Below, piece after piece: positions 12,478 through 30,977 of a DNA stretch of 40,842 nt. Position 1 is the stretch's first letter, and each line of letters opens with the position of its first letter. A program made the translations under genes and the position numbers. Origin of the DNA: Rubrivivax sp. (GTDB taxonomy: Bacteria; Pseudomonadota; Gammaproteobacteria; Burkholderiales; Burkholderiaceae_C). Where the stretch lies: assembly GCA_040007675.1 (NCBI GenBank), contig JBDTUO010000001.1, positions 1 to 40,842 of the forward strand. Reading direction: 5' to 3'. Under the pieces are notes generated by a model. It was not told the DNA's origin. It ran no database searches and saw only the letters and a program-made list of their open reading frames with translations.

Positions 12478-12517
12478 CGGCACTGCGGGCACGAGAAAGG
12501 ACTCCCCGAATTCGTCG

Positions 12518-13993
12518 CTATTCGGATTGCGTCTTTGTTGCCAGCAATTCGTTGAATTTCTCCAGATCGTTGCGAAGCCCGGCATAGATCTGCGGCTTGT
12601 GCTTGCGCAGGTAGATGGCATAGACGATGCCGCCCACCAGCGCTGCCAGCAACAGCAGCGGCAGCAGATTCACCAGCAGCGCCTCCGAGCCCGCAATGAC
12701 GGAGAAGTTCAGGATCGCCATGACCGCGATGCCGAGCAGTCCCAGCGCACCGATGCCGGGGGCGACGAAGGTGCGCCACCACCGAGGGTCGCGGGTGCGG
12801 CGGAAGTGCACGACGATCGACAGCGCGGTCAGCAATTGCAGGACCAGGATGCACAGCGTGCCAAAGCCCAGCATGCCGGGCACGAGCGATGCGATCGGGT
12901 CCAGCCCCAGCACGGCGAAGACCCCTGCCACGCTCGCCGCGAACAGCGCCTGCACGATGGCCGCGGTTTGTGGAACCCCGTTCCCGGTCGTGCGCGCCAG
13001 GGCGAACGGCAGGATGCGCGCGCGGCCGAGCGAAAACAGGTAGCGGGTGGCCGAGTTGTGGAACGCGAGCATCGCGGCAAACAGGCTGACGAGCAGCAGG
13101 ATCATCATGAGGTCGGTCAGTGCGCTGCCCAGATAGGTGTTCGAGAGGCTGAAGATCAGGTCGCCGCTTTCCAGGTGCTCGAGGCCCACGTTCTGGGCCT
13201 GGGCGACGCCGGTGGCGCTGACGACGGCCCAGGTGGTCAGGCCGAGGATGAGTCCGATCACGCAGATGGACGCATAGGTGGCGCGCGGAATGGTCCGCAG
13301 CGGGTTCTTGGCCTCTTCACTGAAGAGCGACGTGGCCTCGAAGCCGAGGAAGCCGGTGGCGGCCAGCAGGAGTCCGATCCCGATCGAGCCCGAGAAGATG
13401 AACTCCGGTGCGAAGGCGTCGAGACTGAAGCCGTGCTTGGTGAAGACAGCGGCATCGAAGAGCAGCAGGATCAGGGTCTCGAGGATCAGCGAAGCGCCGA
13501 GCACCTTGGCGCTGAATCCGATGCCCTGCCTGGCCAGCACGAAGGAGGCGACGATCGAGATCAGGCCCCAAGCGTACCAGTGCAGATCGAATCCGGTGAG
13601 CTGCGCGACGACGGTCTGCGTGAAGAAGCCACTCGTGCCGATGGTGCCGGCGACGAAGAAGTTATAGCCCATGGTGGCGATGAAGCCGGCAACCAGCCCT
13701 CCGCTGCGGCCCAGGCCCTTGACTACGAAGGCGTAGAACCCGCCCGCATTCACCAACTGCCGTGACATCTGTGCGTAGCCGACGGCGAAGAACAGCAAGA
13801 TGATGGCAACGATGATGAACGACGCCGCCGCGCCTCCCCCGTTGCCCAGGGCGATAGCGAGTGACGCGACGACGACGATGCCCGTCAACGGGGCGACGGC
13901 GGCAAGAACGAGAAAGACGACGCCGGGCACACCGAGGGCATTCCTTTCCAGTTGACCGGCGGTGAAGTATCCGGGTCGATCCTCTGTGCTCAC
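12518..13993 (-). CDS. APC-family amino acid/amine permease
   Basis: 491 aa, about 12 hydrophobic segments; NAGGFYAFV, FLGFEATSLFSEEAKNP; AAAGGA RBS before the GTG start. Confidence 0.88.
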   Translation of the reverse strand: MSTEDRPGYFTAGQLERNALGVPGVVFLVLAAVAPLTGIVVVASLAIALGNGGGAAASFIIVAIILLFFAVGYAQMSRQLVNAGGFYAFVVKGLGRSGGLVAGFIATMGYNFFVAGTIGTSGFFTQTVVAQLTGFDLHWYAWGLISIVASFVLARQGIGFSAKVLGASLILETLILLLFDAAVFTKHGFSLDAFAPEFIFSGSIGIGLLLAATGFLGFEATSLFSEEAKNPLRTIPRATYASICVIGLILGLTTWAVVSATGVAQAQNVGLEHLESGDLIFSLSNTYLGSALTDLMMILLLVSLFAAMLAFHNSATRYLFSLGRARILPFALARTTGNGVPQTAAIVQALFAASVAGVFAVLGLDPIASLVPGMLGFGTLCILVLQLLTALSIVVHFRRTRDPRWWRTFVAPGIGALGLLGIAVMAILNFSVIAGSEALLVNLLPLLLLAALVGGIVYAIYLRKHKPQIYAGLRNDLEKFNELLATKTQSE

Positions 13994-14053
13994 GATGTTC
14001 CTTTCGTCTCGGAGAGTCCGCGGTCTTCGCCGCGTGATGGATTCTTTGTCGAA

Positions 14054-14743
14054 TCAGCCGGTCCGCGGTGGGCCGGCCATGGATGCCTCGGCGGGGGGCA
14101 GACCGAGCAGTTGCAGCGCGTGGTGATACGAGGCCTGCGGCTGCACGACGTCGAAGTGCACGACCTGCATGCCGAAGCTTCGCGCGCCGTCGACGTTGCG
14201 CCGCTGGTCGTCGACGAAGACACAGTCGGCCGCAGCGATGCCGAGACCCTCGGTGATTGCCGCGTAGGCGCGCGGATCGGGTTTGAGAATGCCGGTGTAG
14301 GTGGCGTCGACGATCAGCTCGAACAGCGCCAGCAAGGGCAGTTCTTCGCGCATCGCGGCGCCGTAGAACATGTCGAGCTCGTTGGACAACAGGGCCACGC
14401 GCTTGCCGGCGGCCCGAGCGGCGTGGACCGCGTGCTCTGCCTGCGGGCGGATCATCGCCTGCACGTCGGCGCCGCGTGCGCGTCTGACGAAGGTCTCCAT
14501 CCGGTCCCAATCTTCGCCGAGCAGACAGCCGACTTCGTGGGTGCGTGCCATCCAGTAGTCGCGCTCGCTGATGCGGTCGGCCTGCATCTCGCGCCACAGC
14601 GGGTCGTGCGCAGGGTCGAACGGGCCCCGCCACGTCAGGGTGCCGGGCGCCAATCCGAGCGCACGCTCGGTCTGGGCATGCGTCTCGAACAGGGTGCGGG
14701 TGACGACACCGCCGAAGTCGAGCACCAGGGCCTGGGCGCTCAT
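14054..14743 (-). CDS. HAD-superfamily hydrolase (subfamily IA-like)
   Basis: LVLDFGGV (motif I), LLSN, KPDPRAY, CVFVDD. Confidence 0.85.
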   Translation of the reverse strand: MSAQALVLDFGGVVTRTLFETHAQTERALGLAPGTLTWRGPFDPAHDPLWREMQADRISERDYWMARTHEVGCLLGEDWDRMETFVRRARGADVQAMIRPQAEHAVHAARAAGKRVALLSNELDMFYGAAMREELPLLALFELIVDATYTGILKPDPRAYAAITEGLGIAAADCVFVDDQRRNVDGARSFGMQVVHFDVVQPQASYHHALQLLGLPPAEASMAGPPRTG

Positions 14744-14753
14744 CTCGGTGGAC

Positions 14754-16007
14754 TCACTGGAGCTCGGCCGCTTCGGGCGCGGCGATCAGACCCTCGGCCA
14801 CCCAGCGGTCGAACACCTGCAGCACCGCCGCGGCGAATGCCGCATCGTTGATGTGCGCGTCCAGCTCGATCAGTTGCGTGCCGGTGCCCACCGCAGTGCG
14901 CAGTTCGTCGACCAGCGCACCCAGGCCTTCGGGATCGTGCAGCGGCTGGCCAGCACGATCCCAGCCTTCGACGCCCTGCGTGGGCACCAGGAGCACGGTC
15001 GGTCCGGTCGCCTGGCTCAGACGCGCACCGATGGCACGGGCGACGCTGCGGCGCATCGGCGGGTCGATGCAGACCGAGGCGATGAGCCGGTTGTGGGTGT
15101 GCGCGGCGCGGCCCTGGAAGCGCTCCGGCAGCCCGGACCAGGCCGCGTAGTCGATCATGTCGGTGGCTCCCGGGGCCACGATTTGCGGCACGCCGGCGCG
15201 TCCGGCACCCAGAAGGCGGTCGGCGCCGGCGGTGACACAGGAGCCTCCGAGGTGGTTGACGAGTTCCTGCAGACACAGGTCCATCACGGCGACGAAGCGG
15301 CCTTGTGCCGCCAGCGTTTCGAAGGCGCGGCCGCCCATGCCGGTGGTGTGGAACACAGCGACCTCGAAACCGCGCCGCTCGAGTTCGGGCTTGAGCAGCT
15401 TCATGTAGCCGAGCACGCTCGATCCGAGCGAGGTCATGCCCACCATCGGACGCCCCGGGAGGGGCGCGATCACGCTGCGGCACGCACCGAGCACAGCACC
15501 GGCGGCCTGCGACAGCGCCGAGCGGCACAGGCTGTTCAAGCCATACAGGCCGCCGACCCACAGCACCATGATCAGATCGGGCGCGATGCGTTCGGAGGGC
15601 AGCAGATGCGAATATGCGATTGTCGACAGCACCACCTTCGGAAACCCCAGCGGCAGCGCGCTGGTGACATCGAGCGCGAGGTCGGTGCCCATCGTTCCGC
15701 CGAGCGCCAGCACGCCGGCGATGCGCCCCTGGCCCTGCAGCTTCGCGGCCAGCAGCGCGGCGCCGCAAGCCATCGTGCGCATCGCGCTGTTCTCGTCGCC
15801 AGACGCCGCGGCCTGCTCCAGCGTCATCCCGGCGGCGGCGGCAACCTCGGTGTTCGTGATGTCGGCGCGGCAGCCGCCGCGCCCGAGCACACCGACATCC
15901 ATCACCAGCGCATGCCCGCCGGCCTGCCCGATGCACCGGCTCAGGAAGGCGATCTCGTCACTCTTGGTGTCGACGGTGCCGATAAGCAGGATCGTCGGAT
16001 TTTCCAT
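14754..16007 (-). CDS. Tm-1-like ATP-binding domain protein (UPF0261 family)
   Basis: ILLIGTVDTKSDE, GGTMGT, LPLGFPKVVLST, GLNS, FHTTGMGGRAFE, PQIVAPGATDM, HIND. Confidence 0.85.
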   Translation of the reverse strand: MENPTILLIGTVDTKSDEIAFLSRCIGQAGGHALVMDVGVLGRGGCRADITNTEVAAAAGMTLEQAAASGDENSAMRTMACGAALLAAKLQGQGRIAGVLALGGTMGTDLALDVTSALPLGFPKVVLSTIAYSHLLPSERIAPDLIMVLWVGGLYGLNSLCRSALSQAAGAVLGACRSVIAPLPGRPMVGMTSLGSSVLGYMKLLKPELERRGFEVAVFHTTGMGGRAFETLAAQGRFVAVMDLCLQELVNHLGGSCVTAGADRLLGAGRAGVPQIVAPGATDMIDYAAWSGLPERFQGRAAHTHNRLIASVCIDPPMRRSVARAIGARLSQATGPTVLLVPTQGVEGWDRAGQPLHDPEGLGALVDELRTAVGTGTQLIELDAHINDAAFAAAVLQVFDRWVAEGLIAAPEAAELQ

Positions 16008-16029
16008 TGCAGATGACCTGGCGCCGGTT

Positions 16030-17394
16030 TCAGAGCGTGGTCTCGACCGCGGCGAACGACGCATCGAGGATGTCGACGAGGTGGTCGATCTCTTCGCGCG
16101 TGATGATCAGCGGTGGCGACAGGATCATGTTGGGCCCCGAGATGCGAACCATCGCCCCGCGCTGGTAGGCCTCGCGCGCGACGCGTTGCGGGATGTCGCT
16201 GCTGCGCGTCAGCGACGCGCGCGAGGCCTTGTCCGACACCATCTCGATGCCGCTCATCAGCCCCTGGCCGCGGACGTCGCCGACGAAGCTGAACCGGTCC
16301 GCAAAGTCGGCCAGCCGGGCCTGCAGGTGCGCGCCGACACGCGCCGCGTTGCCCGCGATGTCCTGCGACTCGAGCACGTCGAGCGTGGCCAGAGCCGCCG
16401 CCGCGGCCACCGGGTGGCCGCTGTAGGTGTAGCCGTGGGCGATGGTGCCGGCGTTGCCGCTGTCGGCGAGAAAGGCGTCGGCAACCTTGTGGCTCAGGGC
16501 GGTCGCACCGAGCGGCACGTACCCCGACGAGATGCCCTTTGCCAGGCACCAGATGTCGGCCTTCACGCCCCACAGCCGGGTGCCGAAAAGGGCGCCGCTG
16601 CGGCCGAAACCGGTCACGACCTCGTCGGCGATCAACAGCACGTCGTTGCGGTCGCAGACCTCGCGCACCAGCGGCCAGTAGGCGGCCGGCGGCACGATCA
16701 CGCCGGCCGAACCCTGGATTGGTTCGGCGATGAACGCGGCCACGGTGTCGGCGCCCTGGAACTGGATCTCGCGCTCGAGCAAGTTGGCGCAGATGCGGGC
16801 CAGTTCCTCGGGGTCCTGGCTGAACGGGTTGTGGTACAGCCACGGGGTGTCGACGTGGAAACAACCCGGCATCAGCGGCTCGTAGGCACGCCGGATGTTG
16901 CCCAGACCGTTGACCGACATGCCGCCGAAATGCACCCCGTGGTAGCCCTGCTTCAGGCTGATGTACTTGCTGCGCTCGGCCTGCCCCCGGAGCTTCCAGT
17001 ACTGGCGCGCAATCTTCAGCGCCCCTTCGACCGCATCGCTGCCGCCGTTGCCGAACATCACCGAGGCGACGCCGTCCTCGGTCATCATGCCGACCAGGCG
17101 GGCCGACAGTTCGATCGCACGCGGGTGGCTGGTGCCGCGGAAGGTGTTGTAGAAGGGAAGCTCGTCGAGCTGGGCGACGATGGCGTCGCGCACCGCCCGG
17201 TTGCTGTGGCCGAGGTTGCTGCTCCACAGGCCGGCGACACCGTCGAGCATCTTGTGGCCGTCGATGTCCCACACCCAGCAACCTTCGCCGCGGACGATGA
17301 TGTCCGGACGGTTCTGCTGCATCGCCCGCGGATGCGCCATCGGGTGGAACAGGAAACGTGCGTTGTCCTGCTTGAGCTGTTCGACATTCGACAT
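16030..17394 (-). CDS. Class III PLP-dependent (omega) aminotransferase
   Basis: GSDAVE, YHG, AEPIQGSAG, DEVVTGFGR, AKG (PLP lysine), HGYTYSGHP. Confidence 0.92.
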   Translation of the reverse strand: MSNVEQLKQDNARFLFHPMAHPRAMQQNRPDIIVRGEGCWVWDIDGHKMLDGVAGLWSSNLGHSNRAVRDAIVAQLDELPFYNTFRGTSHPRAIELSARLVGMMTEDGVASVMFGNGGSDAVEGALKIARQYWKLRGQAERSKYISLKQGYHGVHFGGMSVNGLGNIRRAYEPLMPGCFHVDTPWLYHNPFSQDPEELARICANLLEREIQFQGADTVAAFIAEPIQGSAGVIVPPAAYWPLVREVCDRNDVLLIADEVVTGFGRSGALFGTRLWGVKADIWCLAKGISSGYVPLGATALSHKVADAFLADSGNAGTIAHGYTYSGHPVAAAAALATLDVLESQDIAGNAARVGAHLQARLADFADRFSFVGDVRGQGLMSGIEMVSDKASRASLTRSSDIPQRVAREAYQRGAMVRISGPNMILSPPLIITREEIDHLVDILDASFAAVETTL

Positions 17395-17413
17395 CGCTGT
17401 CCTTGCGCGGGTC

Positions 17414-18856
17414 TCAGGCGGGCACGCCCACCGTCACGGTTTTGACTTCGGTGTAGTGCAGCAGGCCTTCGGCACCCATCTCCTGGCCGACGCCGCTCTC
17501 CTTCCAGCCGCCGAAGGGCAATTCGGGCTGCGACACGCCGAAAGTGTTGATGCCGACCATGCCGGCCTCGAGCTCCTCGCCCAGGCGATGCGCGGTCTGC
17601 AGGTCGCGCGTGAAGGCGTAGGCGCCCAGCGCATAGGGCAGCGCGTTGGCGCGCACGATGGCCTCGTCGAGGCTGTCGAAGGGTTCGATCACGGCGATCG
17701 GCCCGAAAGGTTCGCTGCGCTGCACCAGGCTGTCGGCGGGCGCGTCGGCGAGCACGGTGGGTTCGAAGAAGTAGCCGGGCCGATCGACGCGGTGGCCGCC
17801 GCACAGCAGCCGCGCGCCGCGGTCGACGGCGTCGTCGACAAAACGCTCCATCTCTTCAATGCGACGGCTGTGGATCAGCGGGCCCATCTCGGTCTGGGGA
17901 TCGAGCCCCGGCCCCAGGCGCAGCGCCTGCGCGCTGGCGCTGAACTGCGCCGCCCATGCCGCATACAGGCTGCGGTGCACGTAGAAGCGGATCGGCGAGG
18001 CACAGACCTGACCCGCGTTGCGGAACTTGGCTGCCAGCGCGTTCTTCAGCGCGAAGCCCGCGTCGGCATCGGCGCAGACGATCACCGGCGCGTGGCCGCC
18101 GAGCTCGCCGGTGAAGCGCTTGATCCGCTCCGCGCACATCTGACCGAGCTGCTTGCCGACTGCCACCGAGCCTGTGAATGAGGCCTTGCGGATCGCAGCG
18201 TGATCGATCAACGTCGCCGAGACCTGTTCAGGCACGCCGCAGACCATGTTCAGCGCCTCGGGCGTCACGCCGGCATCGAGAAAGGCGCGCACCACCAGCA
18301 TGCAGCTCGCCGGCGTTTCTTCGGCCGGTTTGATGACGACGCTGCAGCCCGCTGCCAGGGCACTGCCGAGCTTGCGTGACGGCAGGTTGACCGGGAAGTT
18401 CCAGGGCGTGAACGCGGCCACCGGGCCGATCGGCTGGCGAATCACGGCCTGCGACAGGATTCCCGGCACCCGCGGCGGCACCAGCCGGCCGTAGAGGCGT
18501 TTCGCCTCCTCGGCCTGGAAATCGATGATGTCGGCCGACAGCGTCACCTCGCGCAACGCCTCGGCCAGCGGCTTGCCCTGCTCGAGGGTCAGGACCTGCG
18601 CGATGGCCGGCGCACGCTCGCGCAGCAGCGCGGCGGCCTGGCGCACGATCAGATAACGCTCGTGCGCCGACTTCCGGCGCCAGATCACGAAGCCGCGCGC
18701 GGCAGCCTCGGCAGCCTCGTTCAGCTCCCGGGCGCCAGCCAGCGGAAGGGTTCCCAGCGGCGATGCGTCCGCCGGATTGACCACGCTGCATTCGCCCCCC
18801 GACGCGCGGCGCAGCCATTGGCCAGCGACATGAAGTGCGAGTTCGGGGTAGCCCAT
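17414..18856 (-). CDS. NAD(P)-dependent aldehyde dehydrogenase (SSADH/KGSADH-like)
   Basis: TPWNFP, KPAEETP, FTGS, ELGGHAP, NAGQVC, EPFGP, PFGGWKESG. Confidence 0.92.
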   Translation of the reverse strand: MGYPELALHVAGQWLRRASGGECSVVNPADASPLGTLPLAGARELNEAAEAAARGFVIWRRKSAHERYLIVRQAAALLRERAPAIAQVLTLEQGKPLAEALREVTLSADIIDFQAEEAKRLYGRLVPPRVPGILSQAVIRQPIGPVAAFTPWNFPVNLPSRKLGSALAAGCSVVIKPAEETPASCMLVVRAFLDAGVTPEALNMVCGVPEQVSATLIDHAAIRKASFTGSVAVGKQLGQMCAERIKRFTGELGGHAPVIVCADADAGFALKNALAAKFRNAGQVCASPIRFYVHRSLYAAWAAQFSASAQALRLGPGLDPQTEMGPLIHSRRIEEMERFVDDAVDRGARLLCGGHRVDRPGYFFEPTVLADAPADSLVQRSEPFGPIAVIEPFDSLDEAIVRANALPYALGAYAFTRDLQTAHRLGEELEAGMVGINTFGVSQPELPFGGWKESGVGQEMGAEGLLHYTEVKTVTVGVPA

Positions 18857-18875
18857 GCGTGCCCAGCAATCCAGT

Positions 18876-19886
18876 TCAGGGCTTGCTGTCGACCACGACG
18901 CCCTGGCGCGAGAACAGGACTTCGCTCCCGTCGGCGGCGCCGATGACCGCGGTCAGCGACAGGCGGTCGGCACGTGGTGAGGTCACGAAGTTCTTGCCGC
19001 CGTCACTGCTGCGCAACAGCAGGCCGTCGGCGCCCACCGCGATCAGATCCCGATCAACCTGGGCCATCGCGCTGATCGACGAGGTGCTTCCGGTGGCCAC
19101 GGCGCTCCAGCTGCGGCCGTCGTCGACGCTGCGAAACAGAGAGCCGCGCATCCCGGCTGCGAACAGGCTGCCGTCGGCGGTGGCGAGACCGGTCCACAAG
19201 GAGCCCTTGTAGCCGGTGGACAGGTAGACCCAGTTCTGGCCGAAATCGTCCGAGCGCAGCAGCTTGCCGCGTTCGGCGGCGGCATACAGGCGCCCCTTGC
19301 TGTCGGTGAACAGACCGTAGAGGTTCAGGTCGGCCTTGCGCGCGCCGTCCGGCGGCGGTGGCGAGACGGTCTGCCATTGGCGCCCGCCGTCCTCGGTGCG
19401 CAGCACCAGCGACCACAGGCCGACCGCCACCCCGCGCTGCGCGTCGAAGAAGTGCACCGCGAACAGCGGCCGGTCGGTCTCCACGTCGCTGCGCTGCACG
19501 GTCCAGGTCTCGCCGCCGTCTTCGCTGTGCAGGATCACGCCCCAATGGCCCACGGCCCAGCCTTGCCGGGCATCGACGAAGCTGACACCGGTGAGCGCAG
19601 CATCGACCGGCACCGTGCGCGCTTGACGAAAGGTCCTGCCGTTGTCGTCGGACAGCAGGACCACGCCGTGGTCGCCCACCGCGACGATGCGTGCGCCGGC
19701 ACGCGCAGACGCCAGCAGCATCGCGTGGCTGGCGTGGACGGTGCGCTGCGCGCCGACGAGGGTCAACGGCGCCGCGGCCGTGGCCTGGGCGAATGTCGGC
19801 TGCCCGCACAGCAGCGGCACCGCCAGCAGCGACCAAAGCCAGCGCGACGACCCGCAGCTCCTGGGTGAGGTGTGCCCCATCGTCAT
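18876..19886 (-). CDS. Secreted BNR/Asp-box beta-propeller protein (Ycf48-like)
   Basis: Signal peptide; repeated S/T-x-D-x-G-x-x-W/F Asp boxes (SDDNGRTF, SEDGGETW, TEDGGRQW, SDDFGQNW, SVDDGRSW). Confidence 0.85.
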   Translation of the reverse strand: MTMGHTSPRSCGSSRWLWSLLAVPLLCGQPTFAQATAAAPLTLVGAQRTVHASHAMLLASARAGARIVAVGDHGVVLLSDDNGRTFRQARTVPVDAALTGVSFVDARQGWAVGHWGVILHSEDGGETWTVQRSDVETDRPLFAVHFFDAQRGVAVGLWSLVLRTEDGGRQWQTVSPPPPDGARKADLNLYGLFTDSKGRLYAAAERGKLLRSDDFGQNWVYLSTGYKGSLWTGLATADGSLFAAGMRGSLFRSVDDGRSWSAVATGSTSSISAMAQVDRDLIAVGADGLLLRSSDGGKNFVTSPRADRLSLTAVIGAADGSEVLFSRQGVVVDSKP

Positions 19887-19889
19887 ACC

Positions 19890-22295: not shown

Positions 22296-22392
22296 CGATG
22301 TCGGCCGCGGCGCGGCGGCGTCAGGTTGCGGCTGCGCGGGTGGGGGCGGCATGCGCTGGCCGGACCGCATGCAGGCCCCACGGGCGCGGGCG

Positions 22393-24045
22393 TCAGAAGT
22401 TGCGCGACAGCACGGCGCCGAAGAAGGCACGGTCGCCGAGGGGCTGGTCGAGTGCCGAGCCGCCACCCCAGAACTTGGCGTAGTTGAGCGCGAACTGCCA
22501 AGTCGCCGGGTTGCGGATGAAGCTGACGGTCAGGTTGACTGACTTGGCGCCCTTCATGAACAGCCCCGACAGGTTGGGCGTGTAGCCCGAGAGGGCCTGG
22601 AAGTAGTAGATCTCGGGAATGACCTGCCAGCCCGGGATGACCGTGCCGTCGTAGACCCAGCTGACATCGAAGTTGATCCCCGCCGAGGTCTTGCTGCCCT
22701 TGGCCACCGGTGCGGCGGTCGGATCGGTCGCCTGGCCCCAGCCCCAGCCACCGGCGGTGATCAGATCGCCGCCGTAGTTCTTCTTGAGGTCCGGATAGCT
22801 GATCACCACGAGTTCGGACAGCACCGTCGCGGTGTCGGCGCCGAGCATCTTCAGGATGCCGCCGCCCGTGCTCGGGGTCAGGCTGAGCAGGCCGGTAAGG
22901 GCCCATTGCAGCCGCTTTTCGTCGACCCAGCAGTCACCGTTCTGCGAGCTGCAGCCGGTGGTCGCGGCATTCAGCGCGACGGCATCCTTCGGCCGGTACG
23001 ACAGCTCGGTGCCGATCGCCCAGTCGCCGAGCGGGAAATTGGCGCTGACGCCGAGCATCGTCCGATCCTCGGCGTAGGTCCAGCCGACCGCCCCGGTATT
23101 GTTGATATTGACGCTGAAGTTCGGCGTCTTGTCGTGGAAACTCATTGCGTACAGGCCGAGGTTGAGCTGGGTGCCCTGGGGCTGGTAGCGCAGGGCGACA
23201 CCCCACTGGCCGCCGTTGCGCGGCTCGACTTCGACGAGCCCGTAGGCGGCATGACCCTTGCCCAGCCCGTTGACCACCGACCAGTAGCTGCCGGTCGGCG
23301 GGAAGTAGCTGGCGTTCCAGTTCGTCTGCACATAGGCCTCGACGTTCAGGCCATGCCCGAGACCGCTTGCGATGCTGATCATCGGCGCCGGCAGGAACAC
23401 CTCCTTCAACTGCGTGCCCGGTTGCGACAGACGCATGATGTCCATCGCATTGGTGCTGTTGATACCGCCCGGCAGGAACAGGCTCTCGCCCCAGCTGATG
23501 ACCTGGTTGCCCACCCGCACGCGGGCCTGCTGGCCGCCGAGCGCGAAGCTCTTGCTGACCCAGAAGTCGAGCAGCCTGCCCTTGAAGCGCAGGGCTTCGC
23601 GCGCGTCGTCGGACAGGCCGTCGGCGGCCGGCGGCGGCGGCGCTGCGCTGGCGAACCCGGTGGTGCTCGTGGCGGCGAAATCGCGCACCCAGTTGACGCG
23701 GCCGAAGAAGGTGAAGTCGCTCGGCATCTTCAGCAGCAGCTCGTGGCTGCCCTTCAGATAACCCGTGAACAAATCGCCGCGGCCGTAGTTCAGGTTGCCC
23801 TGGTCGCCGAGCAGCGAGGTCGGCGCAAGGCAGCCGGCAACCGCGCCGCCCTTGTCGTCGACGGCGCCGTCGGTGATCAAGCTGCAGCTAGGCGAGTCGG
23901 CGCGCACCCCCAAACCCAGCGAGAGCGTCGAGTCGAAGTTGCCGCGCACGCTCTCGGTCTGGAACGTGAAGGCCTGCGCGCTGCCGAAGCAGGCCATGAG
24001 GGCGGCCGCCGCGGCCGGCTTGAGCAGGGCTCGTGCTGGGTTCAT
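22393..24045 (-). CDS. DUF1302-family outer-membrane protein (probable beta-barrel channel)
   Basis: GGAGA RBS, signal peptide AQA, DQGNLNY, RVGNQVISWGESLF, C-terminal DRAFFGAVLSRNF ending in Phe. Confidence 0.83.
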   Translation of the reverse strand: MNPARALLKPAAAAALMACFGSAQAFTFQTESVRGNFDSTLSLGLGVRADSPSCSLITDGAVDDKGGAVAGCLAPTSLLGDQGNLNYGRGDLFTGYLKGSHELLLKMPSDFTFFGRVNWVRDFAATSTTGFASAAPPPPAADGLSDDAREALRFKGRLLDFWVSKSFALGGQQARVRVGNQVISWGESLFLPGGINSTNAMDIMRLSQPGTQLKEVFLPAPMISIASGLGHGLNVEAYVQTNWNASYFPPTGSYWSVVNGLGKGHAAYGLVEVEPRNGGQWGVALRYQPQGTQLNLGLYAMSFHDKTPNFSVNINNTGAVGWTYAEDRTMLGVSANFPLGDWAIGTELSYRPKDAVALNAATTGCSSQNGDCWVDEKRLQWALTGLLSLTPSTGGGILKMLGADTATVLSELVVISYPDLKKNYGGDLITAGGWGWGQATDPTAAPVAKGSKTSAGINFDVSWVYDGTVIPGWQVIPEIYYFQALSGYTPNLSGLFMKGAKSVNLTVSFIRNPATWQFALNYAKFWGGGSALDQPLGDRAFFGAVLSRNF

Positions 24046-24085
24046 GGGACTGTCTCCGCTTGGGTTCTTGTGATCGACGGTTGAA

Positions 24086-25477
24086 TCAGCGGTCGCTGAT
24101 CGCACGCAGGTTGTCGGACGTGTAGAAGCTGGGCTTCATGCGCGGGTTGTCACCGGGTTCGGTGAGCCAGCGCACGTCGCTGCCGGTGCCGGCGGCGTGC
24201 ATGTCGAAGACGTAGCGGCCTTCGTTGAGGTTGTATTGCACGAAGGCCGAGACGTCGCAGGTGCCGGTCTCGTAGACCGGGATCAGGAAGCCCTCGCGCA
24301 CCTTGGCCAGCTTGCCCTGGGCGTCGTAGTCCTCGGCCAGCACCATGTTCCAGCTGTCCTCGTCGAGGTAGTAGGTGCGCTTGGGCGTGGTGTGGCGCAT
24401 GCCCGCCTTGACCGACGCCTCGATCACCCACACGCGGTGCAGTTCGTAGCGGCGCTGGCCCGGGTCGATGAAGTCGGGCTTGGCGATGTCCTCGAACTTG
24501 GCCTTGAAGTTGTAGGCGCCGAAGGCGTTGTAGGGCACGTACAGCTCCGTCTTGCCGACGAGCTTCCAGTCGAAGCGGTCGAGCGTGCCGTTGAAGACGA
24601 AGGGCTCGTCGAGCGTGTACTGGTTCTCCATGCCGATCTGCGGCGAGTCGTACGAGTACGTCGGCATGCGGCGCACGCGCCGCTGGCCCGGGAAGTAATA
24701 GAAGGTCTCGCTGCCGTCCTGGTCGAGGAAGTACGTGATCGAGAGCGCCTGACCGGCCAGCGCGGTGGGCGAGCTGTAGGCGAAGTAGGCGTAGTACTCG
24801 ACCTGCGGCAACTTGGACAGCAAGGTCGAACCCTTGGCGCCCCAGGGCATGTAGGCGGTGAATTCCTGGCCGGCACGAATCCACTCGGTGCTGCCCTTGC
24901 GTGGCGAGACCGAGGTCACGACGTTCTTGTAGTCGATGCCGACGCCGCGGTAGCGCATCTTCGCGTTCCACATCGCCTCGATACCGGCGGCGGGCATCGC
25001 AAACGGGATGCCGGGCACCGTCGCTTCCTTCAAGCCCCAGCCGTCGGCGGCCAGCTTCGCGGTGCTGACGCTCGCCTTGGTGTTGGCGGCGACGAAGTCG
25101 GGTGCGCCGCAGCTGCGCCGCGTCGGGTACACCTGCATGCTGTAGCCCTTGATCTGCTTGAGCATCGCGAGCTGGCCGGGCGACAGGCGCTCGGCGTACT
25201 TGTCCCCGTTAGCCGCATCGATGGTCAGTGTCGGCTTGTCGTCCTTGTGCTTGAAGTGCTCACCACGCAGCTTGCCGTACGACCAGCCCGTCTGCTGCAC
25301 CTCGTTGCCCGACCAGGCTGGAATGCTGCCGTCCTTGTTGCCGGCTTTCTCGGCGCCCAGCGGCGTCAGCTCCGCGCCGAGTCTGGAAGCATCGGCAGCG
25401 TGTGTGGCGGGGCTCGCGGCGACCATCGCCAGGATCAAGGTTGAACAGGCCAGGGCCAGGGGCTTGTGGTGGGTCAC
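24086..25477 (-). CDS. DUF1329-family periplasmic protein
   Basis: Signal peptide; LTPLGAEKAGNKDGSIPAW, YFPGQRRVRR, FNGTLDRFDWKLVGK, RYELHRVWV, YLDEDSW; GGAGA RBS. Confidence 0.87.
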   Translation of the reverse strand: MTHHKPLALACSTLILAMVAASPATHAADASRLGAELTPLGAEKAGNKDGSIPAWSGNEVQQTGWSYGKLRGEHFKHKDDKPTLTIDAANGDKYAERLSPGQLAMLKQIKGYSMQVYPTRRSCGAPDFVAANTKASVSTAKLAADGWGLKEATVPGIPFAMPAAGIEAMWNAKMRYRGVGIDYKNVVTSVSPRKGSTEWIRAGQEFTAYMPWGAKGSTLLSKLPQVEYYAYFAYSSPTALAGQALSITYFLDQDGSETFYYFPGQRRVRRMPTYSYDSPQIGMENQYTLDEPFVFNGTLDRFDWKLVGKTELYVPYNAFGAYNFKAKFEDIAKPDFIDPGQRRYELHRVWVIEASVKAGMRHTTPKRTYYLDEDSWNMVLAEDYDAQGKLAKVREGFLIPVYETGTCDVSAFVQYNLNEGRYVFDMHAAGTGSDVRWLTEPGDNPRMKPSFYTSDNLRAISDR

Positions 25478-25553
25478 GTCGTCTCCTTCAAAGGGCGATG
25501 CCGATCGGCCGGATCTGTCGATGGCGTTGCCGGCGGCGCGGCCGGTCTGTCAC

Positions 25554-25595
25554 ATCCTAGGTGGCCGGGCGCAGAGCAGTTATCCCGATCCGGCA
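25554..25595 (-). promoter_or_regulatory. Putative AraC/XylS-activated promoter of the leftward operon
   Basis: Minus strand reads TGCCGGATCGGGATA (25595-25581), 21 nt, then TAGGAT (25559-25554), the same geometry as the XylS proximal site and -10 of the TOL Pm promoter. Confidence 0.55.
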
Positions 25596-25649
25596 GCATC
25601 GAAAGGCAATTCGAGGAGGCTGTCGGGCTGGCCCGCATGCGCTGCGGAT

Positions 25650-25691
25650 TGCCGGATCCGGATAGCCGGCTGCCGTGCTGCGACCTATGAT
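25650..25691 (+). promoter_or_regulatory. Putative AraC/XylS-activated promoter of the amine dehydrogenase operon
   Basis: TGCCGGATCCGGATA (25650-25664), 21 nt, then TATGAT (25686-25691). Confidence 0.55.
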
Positions 25692-25735
25692 GATTGCGCC
25701 AGCGGCCCCGGGGGGCCGCGCATGGGAGCCATCGC

Positions 25736-26914
25736 ATGGGTGCTCGCTTGTTCCACGGCGCGGCACATCAGGTCGCGCGCAGTCTGCTGGTCATCGGGGC
25801 CGTTGCGCTGACCTCGACAGCCCACGCCGTGTTGCCGCTCGACCAGTTGACGATGACCAAGCTGGCGCCGGTCGACTCGTACCGGCTGTACATCGGCGAC
25901 CCGGCGATGGGCCATCTTGTCGATGGCCGCACTCATGTGCTCGACGGTTCCCAGATGCGCTATCTCGGCCTGCTCGGCACCGGCTTTGCCGCGGCGACGG
26001 CGCTGTCGCCGGACCGGCACACGATCTACGTCGCCACCACCTACTACAGCCGGCTGCAGCGCGGCGTGCGCACCGACGTCGTCGAGGTCTACAGCGCCGA
26101 CGACCTGAGCTTCCAGTACGAAATCGAGATCCCCGCCAAGCGGGTGACCAGCTTGCCGATGCGCGCGCTGTCGGCCACCACGGCCGACGGCCGCTTCCTG
26201 CTGGTGCAGAACGCGACACCGGCGACCTCGGTCAGCGTCGTCGACCTGCAGACCCGGCGGGCCGTGGCCGAGGTGCCGGCGCCGGGCTGCTACGCCGTGA
26301 TCCCGTGGCCGAGCCAGCCGCGGCGCTTCTCATCGGTGTGCGGCGACGGCACCTTCGCGACCTTCGACCTCGACGACAAGGGCGCGCTCGCATCGAGCAG
26401 CGTCAGCAAGCCGTTCTTCGACCCCGACACGGATCCTGTCTTCATGCACTACGAGCTCGTCGGCGACGCACTGAGCTTCGTCTCCTACCACGGCAATGTC
26501 TACAGCCTCGAGCTGACGGGCGCGGCGCCGACGGCGAACCCGCCCTGGTCCATGCTCGATGGGGCTGCTCGCAAGCAGGGCTGGCGGCCGGGCGGTTATC
26601 AGCTGTTTGCCATCGAGCCGCGCAGTGGTCGACTCTATGTCGGCATGCACGACAAGGGCGCCGAGGGCACACACAAGAACCCAGCCAAGGAGATCTGGGT
26701 CGTCGACCTGAAGCGCCGCACCCGCATCGCGCGCCTGCCCGGCCAGATGGCGGTGTCGATGAACATCGCGCGCACCGCCAAGCCACGGCTGTTCGTGCTC
26801 AGCGGTGCGGACAACACCATCGTCTCCTTCGATCTGAGCGGACCGAAACCGCCGACCAAGCCGCTGGCGCGCTCCGAGCCGGTCGGCGATACGCCGGCCT
26901 TCGTGGGGATGTGA
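25736..26914 (+). CDS. mauB: TTQ amine dehydrogenase large subunit (AauB/MauB-like)
   Basis: GGGAG RBS, signal peptide; TTYYSRLQRGVRTDVVEVY, VQNATPATSVSVVD, WRPGGYQ, GTHKNPAKEIWV. Confidence 0.9.
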   Translation: MGARLFHGAAHQVARSLLVIGAVALTSTAHAVLPLDQLTMTKLAPVDSYRLYIGDPAMGHLVDGRTHVLDGSQMRYLGLLGTGFAAATALSPDRHTIYVATTYYSRLQRGVRTDVVEVYSADDLSFQYEIEIPAKRVTSLPMRALSATTADGRFLLVQNATPATSVSVVDLQTRRAVAEVPAPGCYAVIPWPSQPRRFSSVCGDGTFATFDLDDKGALASSSVSKPFFDPDTDPVFMHYELVGDALSFVSYHGNVYSLELTGAAPTANPPWSMLDGAARKQGWRPGGYQLFAIEPRSGRLYVGMHDKGAEGTHKNPAKEIWVVDLKRRTRIARLPGQMAVSMNIARTAKPRLFVLSGADNTIVSFDLSGPKPPTKPLARSEPVGDTPAFVGM

Positions 26915-27465
26915 TGAGCCTGCTGCCCGTCATCGATCCGGTCCTTGCCCACGCCGCGGCCGCGGGGCTCGGCGCCGTCCTGCTGCTCGGCGCGCTCGAG
27001 AAGCTGCGCGAACCCGAGGTGTTCCGCGACGCCGTCGACAACTATCGCCTGTTGCCTGCGCCATTGGTGCCCGTGCTCGCGCGCAGCCTGCCGTTGTTCG
27101 AGGGCCTGGCCGGCGCCTTGCTGCTGCCCGGCGCCACGCGTCCGCTCGGTGGGCTGCTGGCGCTGGCGCTGCTGCTGCTGGTCACCGCGGCGATCGGCAT
27201 CAACCTGCTGCGCGGCCGTGACCGCATCGATTGCGGCTGCGGCGGGGGTCTTCATACACCGCTGGGGGTCGGCCTGGTCGTGCGCAACGGCGTGCTGATG
27301 CTGCTCGCCCTGACCTCGTTCGCACCGCTGTCGGGGCGGCCGGTGGTCTGGCTCGATTTCGCCGCTGCGGGCTTCGCCACGCTGTTCGGCCTCGGCCTGT
27401 ACTACCTGGTGAATGCCATGTTGAGCCACCACGCGCACCTGCTCGAACTGAGGAACTCGCCATGA
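26914..27465 (+). CDS. mauE: Amine dehydrogenase maturation membrane protein MauE/AauE
   Basis: TGATG overlap; hydrophobic; NYRLLP, IDCGCGG, VVRN. Confidence 0.9.
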   Translation: MSLLPVIDPVLAHAAAAGLGAVLLLGALEKLREPEVFRDAVDNYRLLPAPLVPVLARSLPLFEGLAGALLLPGATRPLGGLLALALLLLVTAAIGINLLRGRDRIDCGCGGGLHTPLGVGLVVRNGVLMLLALTSFAPLSGRPVVWLDFAAAGFATLFGLGLYYLVNAMLSHHAHLLELRNSP

Positions 27466-28070
27466 ACGAAGCCCTGATCATTTCCAACGTGCTGCTGTGG
27501 GTGGCGGTGCTGGCTTTGCTGGTGGTGGTGATCGCCCTGTCGCGCCAGATCGGCATCCTCTACGAGCGCATTGCGCCGATGGGCGCGCTGATGATGGACA
27601 GCGGCCCCAAGGTCGGCGACGCGGCGCCGGTCTTTGTGCTCCCCACGCTCGACGGCAGCGAACTGCAGATCGGTGCGCCGTCAGCGCACAGCACGCTGCT
27701 GTTCTTCCTCTCGCCGACGTGCCCGGTGTGCAAGAAGCTGCTGCCGATCCTGAAGTCGGTGAAGAAGGCTGAGGGCGAGCGGCTTCAGCTCGTGCTCGCC
27801 TCTGACGGCGACGCCTCGGAGCACCGGGAATTCCGCCGCCGCGCCGAGCTCGGCGCTTTCCCGTACGTGCTGTCGACCGAACTGGGCATGCGGTTCCATG
27901 TCGGCAAGCTGCCCCATGCGGTGCTGATCGACGAGGCCGGGCGCGTGCGCGCCAAGGGCCTGGTCAATTCGCGTGAACAACTCGACAGCCTGTTCGCGGC
28001 GCGCGAACTCGGCGTCGCCTCTGTGCAGGACTACCTCGATTCCTCGCGTCTGGCCAAGGATCAGGCATGA
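27462..28070 (+). CDS. mauD: Thioredoxin-like maturation protein MauD/AauD
   Basis: RQIGILYERIAPMGAL, SPTCPVCKKL, KGLVNSREQLDSL. Confidence 0.92.
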   Translation: MNEALIISNVLLWVAVLALLVVVIALSRQIGILYERIAPMGALMMDSGPKVGDAAPVFVLPTLDGSELQIGAPSAHSTLLFFLSPTCPVCKKLLPILKSVKKAEGERLQLVLASDGDASEHREFRRRAELGAFPYVLSTELGMRFHVGKLPHAVLIDEAGRVRAKGLVNSREQLDSLFAARELGVASVQDYLDSSRLAKDQA

Positions 28071-28618
28071 AGCAGCTGTTCGACTTCCTCGACCGACTGA
28101 CCGAGCGTCGCGTGCGCGCGCTCGCCAGCAGCACCTCGCGCCGCAGTGCACTGGTCAAGGTCGGCAAGGTGATGGTGGCCTCGGCCTTCACGCTGCCGGT
28201 CCTGCCCTTCGACCGCAGCTCGCGGGCCCACGCGGCAGGTGCCCACGGCGGAGGCAAGAGCGGCAAGGCCGCACCCAAGGCCACCGATTGCGACTACTGG
28301 CGCTATTGCGCGGTCGATGGCTTCCTGTGCTCGTGCTGCGGCGGCAGCGAGACATCCTGCCCGCCCGGAACCAGCATTTCCAAGGTGTCCTGGATCGGCA
28401 CCTGTCACAACCCGGCCGATGGCAAGGACTACCTGGTGAGCTACAACGACTGTTGCGGCAAGACCAGTTGCGGCCGCTGCTTCTGCAACACCAACGACGG
28501 TGACCGTCCGGGTTATCGCTTCGGCGTGCACAACGACGTCAACTGGTGCATGGCCAACGACAGCGCGGTGTATCACTGCACGGTCTCGGTAATCATCGGT
28601 TACCCGGAAAAGTCATGA
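28067..28618 (+). CDS. mauA: TTQ amine dehydrogenase small subunit (AauA/MauA-like)
   Basis: Tat motif SRRSAL; Cys-rich CDYWRYCAVDGFLCSCCGG, SWIGTC and DVNWC (the two TTQ tryptophans), SYNDCC (catalytic Asp); closely resembles the Alcaligenes AADH small subunit as I recall it. Confidence 0.93.
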   Translation: MKQLFDFLDRLTERRVRALASSTSRRSALVKVGKVMVASAFTLPVLPFDRSSRAHAAGAHGGGKSGKAAPKATDCDYWRYCAVDGFLCSCCGGSETSCPPGTSISKVSWIGTCHNPADGKDYLVSYNDCCGKTSCGRCFCNTNDGDRPGYRFGVHNDVNWCMANDSAVYHCTVSVIIGYPEKS

Positions 28619-29058
28619 CGGTCCGAGCCGGGCTGTTGTCACTGGCAGCGCTGCTGCTGGCTCTGCCGGCCGCTGCGGCGCAGGACGCGGTGCGGGCACG
28701 CACGCACTACATCCACCACTGCACCGGCTGCCACCTGATGGACGGGCGGGGGGTGCCCAGCAAGGGCATCCCGTCGATGCGCAATACGCTGGACCGGTTT
28801 CTGAAGGTGCAGGGTGGCCGCGAATACATCGTGCAGGTGCCGGGGGTGATGAATTCGCCGCTCAACGACGGCGACATAGCCAACCTGATGAACTGGCTAT
28901 TGCCCTACGTCACAGCCGATGGTCAGCTGCAGGGGATGCAGCCTTACAGCGCCGAGGAGATCGCGAGCCTGCGCAAGACCCGCCCGGTCGACGTCGACGG
29001 CACGCGTCGGCATCTGGTGAGCGGCTTGCGCGCGGCGGGCATTCAGATCGACGAGTAA
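28615..29058 (+). CDS. Periplasmic monoheme cytochrome c
   Basis: ATGA overlap with mauA; signal peptide; single CTGCH motif; GREYIVQVPGV. Confidence 0.85.
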   Translation: MTVRAGLLSLAALLLALPAAAAQDAVRARTHYIHHCTGCHLMDGRGVPSKGIPSMRNTLDRFLKVQGGREYIVQVPGVMNSPLNDGDIANLMNWLLPYVTADGQLQGMQPYSAEEIASLRKTRPVDVDGTRRHLVSGLRAAGIQIDE

Positions 29059-29150
29059 GCTCAGGCGACCGGCCCCGGCAGGCGGTGCCGGGCCAAGTGC
29101 AGTCGTTGCGGTTGTCATGGTCGAGCGACGCTCAACAGGACTCAGGGCTG

Positions 29151-29774
29151 ATGGCAAAGGGGGTCTCGCGCCGCAATGCACTCTCGAGCGTGCTGGCGTT
29201 TGGCGGCATCACCGGGCTGTTGGGTGTACAGGCCCGCGGTGAGGTCCGACGGCTCCTGCCCGCGGACCGCATCCGTCCTCCGGGGGCGCTGCGCGAATCC
29301 GGTTTTCTCGAGGCCTGCGTGCGCTGCGGCCTGTGCGTCCAGGCCTGCCCATATGACACCCTGAATTTGGCCGATCTCGGGGCATCGGTGCCCGCCGGCA
29401 CGCCTTACTTCGTCGCTCGGCAGACAGCCTGCGAGATGTGCATAACCATCCCCTGCGTGGCGGCTTGCCCGACCGGGGCGCTGCGATCATCGCTAACCGA
29501 TATCACCGATGCCGCGATGGGTCTGGCCGAACTCAGCGCGCCTGGGCGCTGCCTGAGCACCACCGGGGCTGCGTACTGCGACAGTTGTTTCCAGGCCTGC
29601 CCGGTCAAGGGCCTAGCCCTGCGTATGCAGCCCGGTCACACCGCGCGTGGCGGCAACTTCACGCCGTTCGTCGATGCCGGGTACTGCACCGGCTGCGGCT
29701 GCTGCGAGGCCGCCTGCGTTCTCCAGGGCAACGCCGCGATCACCGTGCGCGCCAACCATGTCGCGCAGCGTTGA
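29151..29774 (+). CDS. mauM: MauM/NapG-type periplasmic polyferredoxin
   Basis: Tat-like SRRNAL; RPPGA, CVRCGLCVQACP, CEMC...CVAACP, CDSCFQACP, CTGCGCCEAAC. Confidence 0.85.
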   Translation: MAKGVSRRNALSSVLAFGGITGLLGVQARGEVRRLLPADRIRPPGALRESGFLEACVRCGLCVQACPYDTLNLADLGASVPAGTPYFVARQTACEMCITIPCVAACPTGALRSSLTDITDAAMGLAELSAPGRCLSTTGAAYCDSCFQACPVKGLALRMQPGHTARGGNFTPFVDAGYCTGCGCCEAACVLQGNAAITVRANHVAQR

Positions 29775-30660
29775 GGCCGGCCCTGGCGCCGGTGCGCCGG
29801 CATCGGCGCCTGCGCATGCGTGGTGGTGGCGCAGCCGTTGGCTGCTGGCGCGACGCGCGAGCCAGTTGCTGGTGCTCGGCCTGTTCCTGCTCGGACCCTG
29901 GTTCGGGCTGTGGCTGGCGCGGGGCACCCTGGCCTCGAGCGAACTTTTCGGCATGCTGAGGCTGACCGATCCGTTCGTTGCGCTGCAGAGCCTGCTCGCC
30001 CGCCACACGCTGGAGGCGGGCATGCTGGCCGGCGCGGTGATCGTCGCGTCGATCTACGTCGTCGCCGGCGGGCGCGCCTATTGCGCCTGGGTCTGCCCGA
30101 TCAACCCGGTCACCGATCTGGCTGCCTGGCTGCGAACGAAGCTTGGCCTGCGCAGCCGGTCCGGTGGTCTCGGCCTCGACCGCCGGCTGCGCTACGTCGT
30201 GCTCGGGATCGCGCTTGCGCTTTCAGCGCTGCTGGGCAGCGTGGTCTGGGAGACGCTGAACCCGATCACGCTGCTGCAGCGGGCGATGGTGTTCGGGCTG
30301 GCCGGCGGCTATGGCGCCGCACTCGCGGTCTTCGGTTTCGACCTGCTGGTGCTGCCGCGCGGCTGGTGCGGCCATCTGTGCCCGGTGGGGGCCTTCTACG
30401 GCGTACTCGGCCGGGTGGCGCTGTTGCACGTCAGTGCGGCACACCGTGATCGCTGCACAACTTGCGGCGACTGTTTTCGGGTGTGCCCCGAGCCGCACGT
30501 AATAGCACCGGCGTTGTACGGCGCAGCGCAGGGCCGTTCACCCGTGATCCGCAGTGCAGACTGCATCCGCTGCGCGCGCTGTCTCGACGTCTGCGCCGAG
30601 GCGGTGTTTCGTTTCGAGCTGCGACCAGCGGGGCGATCGATCACCCAAAAGGACAAGTGA
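29758..30660 (+). CDS. mauN: MauN/NapH-type membrane ferredoxin (quinol dehydrogenase subunit)
   Basis: GRAYCAWVCP, GWCGHLCPVG, CTTCGDCFRVCP, CIRCARCLDVC; membrane segments. Confidence 0.87.
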   Translation: MSRSVEAGPGAGAPASAPAHAWWWRSRWLLARRASQLLVLGLFLLGPWFGLWLARGTLASSELFGMLRLTDPFVALQSLLARHTLEAGMLAGAVIVASIYVVAGGRAYCAWVCPINPVTDLAAWLRTKLGLRSRSGGLGLDRRLRYVVLGIALALSALLGSVVWETLNPITLLQRAMVFGLAGGYGAALAVFGFDLLVLPRGWCGHLCPVGAFYGVLGRVALLHVSAAHRDRCTTCGDCFRVCPEPHVIAPALYGAAQGRSPVIRSADCIRCARCLDVCAEAVFRFELRPAGRSITQKDK

Positions 30661-30863
30661 ATCGCCCCGGTTTTCGTGCAAGGCTGAACCGCCGAACGGC
30701 TCTCCTCATCGCCGTTACTGACGCGGCTGGATGGCGATTGGCTTCGCTACTGGCGTCGGTGGGGTCTGCGTTCATCGAGTGAGGTTTCAGGGGGTCTCGC
30801 GACACCCCTGGCGGCCGGAAAGTCCAGCGTTGTGCCGGTTTGGCGTTGCACGACGCAAACCGG

Positions 30864-30977
30864 TTACCGATCAGTAACTTCTTGCTTGACACCCTGGATA
30901 CCGAGGAAAAAACTTACCGATAGGTAACTTGAAGAGCCTGCCATGGCGTCCACGGCGCAAGACTTACCGATCGGTCA
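30864..30977. promoter_or_regulatory. Three palindromic operator-like boxes (consensus TTACCGATCGGTAA) and a sigma70 -35 for hipBA
   Basis: TTACCGATCAGTAA at 30864, TTACCGATAGGTAA at 30914, TTACCGATCGGTCA at 30964; TTGACA at 30886-30891. Confidence 0.75.

Follow-up and report, generated by a model that had tools for sequence, protein, structure and literature searches.

The window analysed here, 40,842 nucleotides of Rubrivivax sp. (positions 1 to 40,842 of the forward strand of contig JBDTUO010000001.1, assembly GCA_040007675.1), contains at 12518-30660 a divergent gene cluster that we read, with modest confidence, as a predicted regulon for hydroxylated arylethylamines (dopamine, m-tyramine, tyramine). 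These amines would be O-phosphorylated, transaminated, oxidized and dephosphorylated, with oxidation by a tryptophan tryptophylquinone (TTQ) dehydrogenase running in parallel. The locus consists of three modules: an aromatic amine dehydrogenase (AADH)-type TTQ enzyme (module A, aau), an envelope module (B), and a core (C) of transaminase, predicted UPF0261 kinase, HAD hydrolase, aldehyde dehydrogenase (ALDH) and permease. An earlier note on this DNA had described 16 genes of these families in two divergent, tightly packed arms, which Pfam and NCBIfam profile matches confirm: nine genes lie on the minus strand (12518-25477) and seven on the plus strand (25736-30660), with spacings of 3-97 bp on the left and from -14 to 92 bp on the right for the RND and mauN start codons that we chose. 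The features are as follows.

12518-13993, minus strand: APC-family amino acid/amine permease, likely amine importer (PF00324/PF13520; 39% identity to the Rhizobium module APC)
14054-14743, minus strand: HAD-IA hydrolase, likely aryl-phosphate phosphatase (TIGR01509, above cut-off)
14754-16007, minus strand: UPF0261 protein, predicted MarK-related kinase (PF06792 and PF23189)
16030-17394, minus strand: class III omega-transaminase of the PRK07481 type, with Arg86 (NF005683, above cut-off)
17414-18856, minus strand: NAD(P)-dependent ALDH of the SSADH/KGSADH-like branch (PF00171)
18876-19886, minus strand: BNR/YCF48-like propeller, AmeC-like (PF14870)
19890-22295, minus strand: HAE3/MMPL-type RND transporter, AmeD-like (PF03176; TIGR00921 below cut-off)
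22393-24045, minus strand: DUF1302 outer-membrane barrel, AmeA-like (PF06980)
24086-25477, minus strand: DUF1329 periplasmic LolA-like protein, AmeB-like (PF07044)
25554-25595, minus strand: left-arm promoter, TGCC-N6-GGATA, 21-nt spacer and -10-like hexamer; likely AraC/XylS-type activator site
25650-25691, plus strand: right-arm promoter, a mirror copy with the same site, spacer and hexamer
25736-26914, plus strand: aauB, TTQ amine dehydrogenase heavy chain (PF06433)
26914-27465, plus strand: aauE/mauE membrane maturation protein (PF07291)
27462-28070, plus strand: aauD/mauD thioredoxin-like maturation protein (TIGR02661, above cut-off)
28067-28618, plus strand: aauA, TTQ light chain with twin-arginine signal (PF02975)
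28615-29058, plus strand: mono-haem cytochrome c of a type conserved in aau loci
29151-29774, plus strand: MauM/NapG-like ferredoxin with twin-arginine signal, optional (TIGR00397, 178 bits against a cut-off of 178.85)
29761-30660, plus strand: MauN/NapH-like membrane ferredoxin, optional (TIGR02163 and NF007013, above cut-off)

The case for a phosphorylated intermediate begins with the UPF0261 protein. Its best match in the PDB, by sequence (9MPY, E 1e-53) and by the fold of a predicted model, is MarK (Saro_1862), which acts with AcvCDEF in the acetovanillone pathway of Novosphingobium aromaticivorans and shares the two-domain UPF0261 fold and the D-T-K ATP motif (D14-T15-K16 in MarK). According to its description, MarK is an ATP-dependent phenol kinase that acts together with a phosphatase; it contacts the phenol via G195, H219 and H304, and favours substrates whose side chain is an aldehyde or a ketone (PMC12624787). 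The window kinase is 31% identical to MarK and belongs to a separate clade (support 100, long stem), in which D13-T14-K15 is present in 110/112 sequences and the MarK phenol site (G195/H220/H305) in 112/112. D286, R307 and W349 occur in all 112 clade sequences and in none of the 12 outgroup proteins, and replace MarK I285, P306 and H348. Neither the ketone-binding H348 nor the hydrophobic T196, F283 and I285 of MarK are kept; the window protein has W349, S196, M284 and D286 there. As a check on this residue mapping, the MarK residues were found intact in a marK-type gene of a P. putida plasmid. We infer that an acid and an aromatic residue at the ketone end of the MarK site would suit an ammonium side chain.

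The MarK/AcvF system follows a phosphorylate-transform-dephosphorylate logic (PMC12624787); since the operon of the window kinase likewise includes a presumed HAD phosphatase, we expect that logic here too. MarK is partnered by a biotin carboxylase, whereas the window partners are a PLP (pyridoxal phosphate)-dependent transaminase and ALDH; the window HAD belongs to subfamily IA and could not be aligned with its counterpart in a marK-type operon. Neither acvCDE carboxylase genes nor an AcvF-type phosphatase were found in the window operon, and we rejected a MarK orthologue acting on acetovanillone. The kinase model, which informs on fold and not on pocket geometry, superimposes on MarK with a TM score of 0.5 and a root-mean-square deviation (rmsd) of 15 Å; the domains match, but their arrangement differs. 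Whole-chain rmsd values to MarK and Tm-1 (15-17 Å, both domains matching) suggest another domain arrangement in the model, and for MarK a 25-Å gap between the ATP and phenol sites is reported (PMC12624787). A Tm-1-type partner, a phosphoenolpyruvate (PEP)-hydrolase-like TIM barrel gene, is present beside outgroup proteins and was not found in the window, the part searched for it. A second UPF0261 clade (27% identical) lies beside UbiD and PPDK/PEP-utiliser genes, resembling phenylphosphate synthase/carboxylase (G355, G623, G073, G564), and in one case directly behind an aau operon (L022:15262-21146). NF002676 alone also catches this clade and was rejected as a kinase marker.

The transaminase offers the second line of evidence. 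It scores 708 bits against the NF005683 cut-off of 575, has its PLP lysine at K286 and a C-terminal R417, and is closest among solved structures to 5LH9 (PsTA, E 3e-154) and 6S54 (PfTA, 9e-151). These two have Asp and Pro where the window enzyme has Arg86, and the passages of the papers describing them name no physiological substrate. Arg86 is found in 19/19 module transaminases (in 18 cases at most 20 kb from the kinase, in one case on a different contig), in none of six intact unlinked transaminases, and in 81 of the 82 members of a wider set. Two of the unlinked, Arg86-less copies are 60% identical to the window protein and thereby closer to it than the alphaproteobacterial module copies. 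Arg86 aligns within one or two residues of a phosphate-binding arginine of phospho-lyases and is presumed to lie in the pocket. This pattern suggests that the transaminase takes an anionic, phosphorylated amine. A phospho-lyase role of the ETNPPL/5G4I type was rejected for the window enzyme itself: its identity to the Rhizobium phospho-lyase is 28%, and no APH-family kinase that could act as partner was matched in this genome (3.61 Mb, 84% complete). Broken module transaminases occur in G282 (L264) and G190 (L182), one of them a genome without the kinase, as if the module decays as a unit; the copy in the kinase-less genome retains Arg86. Elsewhere in the core, HAD residues D9, S120, K154, D178 and D179 are invariant in 68/68 sequences. 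The window ALDH falls below all NCBIfam cut-offs shown, with 9ZH8 and 5X5T as the closest solved structures, and is 35% identical to the ALDH of the alphaproteobacterial core.

Kinase and transaminase also travel together. Among 401 Pseudomonadota genomes taken in one draw, 20 carry the kinase clade (of 21 matches, one, 27% identical, belongs to another clade and was discounted), 25 the transaminase family, the 20 kinase genomes among them, and 12 the HAD, every one of these kinase-positive; no kinase was matched in the five genomes that have the transaminase family only. Kinase and transaminase are thus found together in about 5% of this draw, root-nodule and marine model strains included. 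The 112 kinase-clade sequences, reduced to 83 at 90% identity, yielded 46 loci with at least 3 kb, and up to 20 kb, on each side, which contain the transaminase (41), ALDH (39), permease (34), HAD (32), envelope module (10) and aau (9). Conversely, the 45 loci with a close AauB contain the envelope module in 27 cases and transaminase or kinase in 10; where the sequence extends 8 kb or more upstream and 6 kb or more downstream (29 loci), these numbers are 20 and eight, with both in six. At genome level, the kinase clade accompanies a close AauB in 13/41, a count that leaves out four short-contig loci and assigns G840 by its linked transaminase and HAD rather than by identity. Modules A and C are therefore separable, and C is widespread without A. 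Nevertheless, loci that unite all three, with five or more different gene orders, are spread over separate branches of the AauB tree (a quick tree, in which L114 is unlabelled though kinase-positive). The co-occurrence of the two arms, for which the earlier note had suggested a search of other genomes, was thus found, in several gene orders and with one shared upstream motif.

The neighbours of the core point to aromatic substrates. Among the 46 dereplicated loci, the core lies within or beside homoprotocatechuate (hpa) clusters in 13, as also seen in plasmid records of Rhizobium, Agrobacterium and Ruegeria; it adjoins a PLP-dependent decarboxylase gene in three, and hmgA with a MhaAB-like flavoprotein and small partner (hmg/mha) in two, the MhaAB-like pair being matched by family, size and position rather than by sequence. 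MhaAB is described as a 3-hydroxyphenylacetate 6-hydroxylase, and HpaBC as accepting both 3- and 4-hydroxyphenylacetate (PMC3053370). Nine of the 46 loci carry a P450, and 10 an APH kinase with a second class III enzyme, a phospho-lyase orthologue (5G4I, E 4e-124), which would fit beta-hydroxylated amines (octopamine or noradrenaline). A meta-hydroxyl would be consistent with every one of these contexts; tyramine is also possible. The host itself, judged by its gene families, has both ring-cleavage exits, hpa (HpaD above cut-off on contig C59; hpaG and a cut hpaE on C71) and mha/hmg (HmgA, FahA and a MhaA-like enzyme). The phospho-lyase and APH kinase cassette is optional (L149:13254-15563 and nine more loci), and other plug-ins of the core include the P450, a GcvT-type flavoprotein, an amidase, a deacetylase, and a PRK07046 transaminase with two short-chain dehydrogenases/reductases (SDRs).

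From these data we propose the following scheme. The amine, imported by the APC permease, would be phosphorylated at its ring hydroxyl by the UPF0261 kinase and then converted by the PLP transaminase and ALDH into a phosphorylated arylacetic acid, from which the HAD would release free hydroxyphenylacetate for ring cleavage. The TTQ enzyme would offer an optional, PLP-free periplasmic route from the same amine class to aldehydes and would pass electrons to the cytochrome c and the MauMN-like proteins. We are fairly confident that the substrate class is that of phenolic arylethylamines, and consider it rather probable that the kinase acts before the transaminase. The phosphate would serve as a temporary protecting group against Pictet-Spengler cyclization with PLP or the pathway's own aldehydes, and against catechol autoxidation; that this is the reason for phosphorylation seems plausible to us, although we would not yet favor it. 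A meta-hydroxyl drives cyclization with PLP, and O-phosphorylation would block it. A cyclic PLP-L-Dopa adduct is described as forming spontaneously and inactivating a PLP enzyme (PMC9121088). Given that the TTQ route works without PLP, the absence of the kinase from 28 of the 41 aau genomes is what the protection reading predicts. More tentatively still, the clade might comprise bacterial dopamine/m-tyramine kinases of rhizobia, roseobacters and Burkholderiales, whose phosphate protects a PLP transaminase co-adapted via Arg86 from Pictet-Spengler suicide, with plug-ins for beta-hydroxylated, N-methylated and N-acylated amines and a regulon shared with a MauG-less TTQ enzyme.

Several observations weigh against this scheme. 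Arg86 of the transaminase and R307 of the kinase could each bind a carboxylate, the latter hence an acid substrate, and eight of the 20 kinase genomes, all of one family, gave no match to this HAD. All 13 hpa-adjacent loci lie in the alphaproteobacterial branch; betaproteobacterial links are looser, the distance from the kinase being about 14 kb for hpa in G835 and 22-27 kb for mha/hmg in G005. HpaE above cut-off separates kinase-positive (19/28) from kinase-negative genomes (6/18) only moderately, kin not being independent, and the MhaA-like family was dropped as a genome-level marker as it does not separate them (22/28 and 11/18). HpaB beside the core in seven of the 46 loci points to tyramine too, which would need no Pictet-Spengler protection, and since close aau loci also lie beside anthraniloyl-CoA-type genes, tryptamine or phenylethylamine may be further substrates of the TTQ arm.

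The order of events could also be reversed: the same amines might be deaminated first, by the TTQ enzyme or the transaminase, and the kinase might trap or detoxify the hydroxy-arylacetaldehyde or acid for later release by the HAD. The preference of MarK for aldehyde and ketone side chains (PMC12624787, as cited above) would agree with this, as would an invariant R307 able to bind an oxyanion and a joined TTQ arm supplying the kinase with aldehydes from two sources. We nevertheless consider this order unlikely, since the kinase tracks the transaminase (20/20 genomes) rather than the TTQ enzyme, the transaminase Arg86 in turn tracks the kinase, and the invariant pocket residue D286 suits an ammonium group. 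Phosphorylation before transamination might alternatively apply to other phenolic amines in the betaproteobacterial branch, such as serotonin (5-hydroxytryptamine) or hydroxybenzylamines like vanillylamine. The four pocket differences of the TTQ enzyme from Alcaligenes faecalis AADH (see below), the divergent window ALDH, and the restriction of direct hpa adjacency to the other branch would be accounted for; however, the kinase pocket residues and Arg86 are alike in both branches, a cluster-linked second ALDH is closest to phenylacetaldehyde dehydrogenase, and protocatechuate or hydroxyindole genes do not recur among the scanned neighbours, so that we rate this as quite improbable.

The earlier note had instead arranged the genes into one linear pathway for one amine, with periplasmic deamination, import, a second deamination, oxidation, and phosphorylation and hydrolysis last. 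An aliphatic di- or polyamine would be the natural substrate of such a route, as APC permease, class III transaminase and SSADH-like ALDH are typical of diamine pathways and the candidate activator (see below) is EutR-like. This model is very unlikely in our view and is not supported: the modules are separable, the core lacking aau in 37 of the 46 loci within the stretches compared, the neighbours of the core are aromatic ring-cleavage genes, and the kinase retains a phenol-binding site. We prefer to see the TTQ enzyme and the PLP transaminase as two parallel routes for a single amine class, and the residue evidence places the kinase before the transaminase. We give even less credence to three unrelated cassettes that adjoin by chance in this lineage. 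Each module does occur alone, and in the literature module B also accompanies terpene, Tween and phenol loci, but the union of all three in at least five gene orders on separate AauB branches, together with the shared motif, argues against coincidence.

The right arm encodes a predicted periplasmic AADH-type TTQ dehydrogenase. The best solved match of both chains is A. faecalis AADH (aauBEDA; PDB 2AGL, 2H3X), with shared TTQ residues: the heavy chain AauB matches AADH with E 7e-86 and methylamine dehydrogenase (MADH) with 1e-37, and the light chain AauA matches AADH with 7e-57 and P. denitrificans-type MADH with 1e-37. AauA keeps both cofactor tryptophans, both active-site aspartates, 14 cysteines and a twin-arginine signal. 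MADH itself was rejected: TIGR02658 reaches 167 of 454 bits and TIGR02659 180 of 197, and mauF, mauG and amicyanin are absent among the 16 genes. The substrate pocket differs from A. faecalis AADH at four positions, namely, in AADH numbering, alpha F97 to M, N124 to A and Q177 to T, and beta F169 to Y; the enzyme is thus best termed AADH-like, and its specificity is not fixed by the likeness. The gene order aauB-E-D-A-mono-haem cytochrome c, with no mauG, mauF or blue copper protein gene in the cluster, is also that of A. faecalis, whose cluster is likewise not known to include mauG. Unlike A. faecalis AADH, the window enzyme is accompanied by mauMN-like genes, which are present in two of 45 aau loci, and is linked to the envelope module and kinase core.

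How AADH-type enzymes make TTQ without MauG is an old question, for which the locus could serve as a compact test, as only one cytochrome is left beside aauA. The lone PF03150 match in this genome lies on an unlinked contig and is nearer to other di-haem enzymes than to MauG. Related aau loci carry two cytochrome types (e.g. L023:12526-13463); the window cytochrome lacks the 20-residue Met loop of c552, its own Met is variable within this conserved type, and a c552-type cytochrome had no match in this genome. The protein is a candidate MauG stand-in or electron acceptor. PF03150-type di-haem gene pairs stand behind some other aau clusters (L011:5400-7644, G584, L222, L227). One aau locus (L061), labelled as a Klebsiella pneumoniae metagenome-assembled genome, groups with uncultured Gammaproteobacteria, and its label may be wrong.

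Both arms start from a 258-bp gap (25478-25735; the aauB ATG is at 25736), and the mirror-image promoter motifs reported in a shared region of about 260 bp were borne out. TGCC-N6-GGATA occurs on the minus strand at 25595-25581 and on the plus strand at 25650-25664, each site exactly 21 nt before a -10-like hexamer, an arrangement kept in relatives. Only five such sites exist in the genome, two of them in the gap, and none of 20000 base shuffles of the gap contained both; scans of the region for sigma-70 consensus promoters and terminators gave nothing above shuffles. The motif was derived from the gap itself, so independent support comes from its recurrence at other loci. Of its 45 matches in 2.96 Mb of related, not dereplicated loci, 32 are found at most 350 nt upstream of a recognised gene, namely aauB (18), DUF1329 (seven), a separately transcribed transaminase operon (five), AraC (one) and a deacetylase (one). 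The motif resembles the BenR consensus TGCA-N6-GGNTA (PMC6449761). One BenR/XylS-type motif precedes all three modules, which are therefore likely to form one regulon.

No activator gene was found within the window. An AraC gene is present in 20/45 aau loci, and its orthologue in this genome (65% identical, EutR-like) is on contig C77, where it adjoins an ALDH gene. This ALDH shares 91-94% identity with the cluster-linked copies of close relatives, and its top score, below cut-off, is for phenylacetaldehyde dehydrogenase. The AraC and ALDH genes of C77 are likely displaced members of the system. The contig (L229:1637-5279) also holds a LuxR-like gene, and orthologues of these genes flank the cluster in close relatives.

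The envelope module, one tightly packed minus-strand run of DUF1302, DUF1329, BNR propeller and HAE3 RND genes, is an AmeABCD-type set that here accompanies aau more than the kinase. Published readings of the four genes differ: AmeABCD of Castellaniella defragrans, the one tested member, was interpreted as a monoterpene exporter (PMC6394551), the Pseudomonas putida genes PP_0765/0766/2018/2019 are required on Tween 20 and esters (10.1101/2020.07.04.188060), models point to a transport complex (PMC10866462, PMC13499233), and the set recurs in aromatic regulons (PMC6449761). The same four families are tied here to amine oxidation and would move a hydrophobic substrate or product across the envelope, inward or outward, so that the outer-membrane entry of the earlier note is one possibility beside export. 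As to the functional context hoped for earlier, a function of UPF0261 is already known from MarK (PMC12624787), the DUF1302 and DUF1329 pair belongs to a known mobile module (PMC6394551), and the locus adds little specific on either DUF family.

Pseudomonas putida U (tyn and hpa) and enteric TynA/FeaB share the sequence from amine via arylacetaldehyde and hydroxyphenylacetate to homoprotocatechuate cleavage, and their tyramine and dopamine routes use oxidases or dehydrogenases without PLP and are not known to involve phosphorylated intermediates. The cluster appears, by analogy, to join MarK/AcvF-type logic to a known type of TTQ enzyme. No described pathway matched it in the open literature searched, where we found no description of the cluster, the core, the union of core and aau, or a dopamine or tyramine kinase; the supplements of the MarK paper, which possibly list clade members, were outside this scope. 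If true, our proposal would mean that amines of the dopamine, noradrenaline and tyramine type can be degraded otherwise than by the known oxidase routes, that UPF0261 proteins have a second physiological role, and that a catecholamine O-kinase of use to biocatalysis exists in nature.

The nearest relatives of the locus carry the label Rubrivivax, and the GC content of the cluster is about that of its flanks. Contigs of one soil metagenome run cover 30/30 bins of 11500-31499 at even depth and with few differences, probably as the source sample and hence not independently; no RNA dataset is listed that contains 14054-18856. On the left, a convergent eight-gene operon (103-12477) with CoA transferase III, acyl-CoA ligase, fused 3HCDH/ECH, TRAP, fused IOR-family oxidoreductase and NnrS genes adjoins the cluster, as it does in the two closest Rubrivivax relatives. 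A CoA transferase (66%) and NnrS lie directly upstream of aauB in the distant locus L050, making a link of this operon to the cluster possible. On the right, a helix-turn-helix and HipA-like pair and a pyrroline-2-carboxylate reductase-family gene (30943-33763) directly follow the right arm, an arrangement not seen in related aau or kinase loci.

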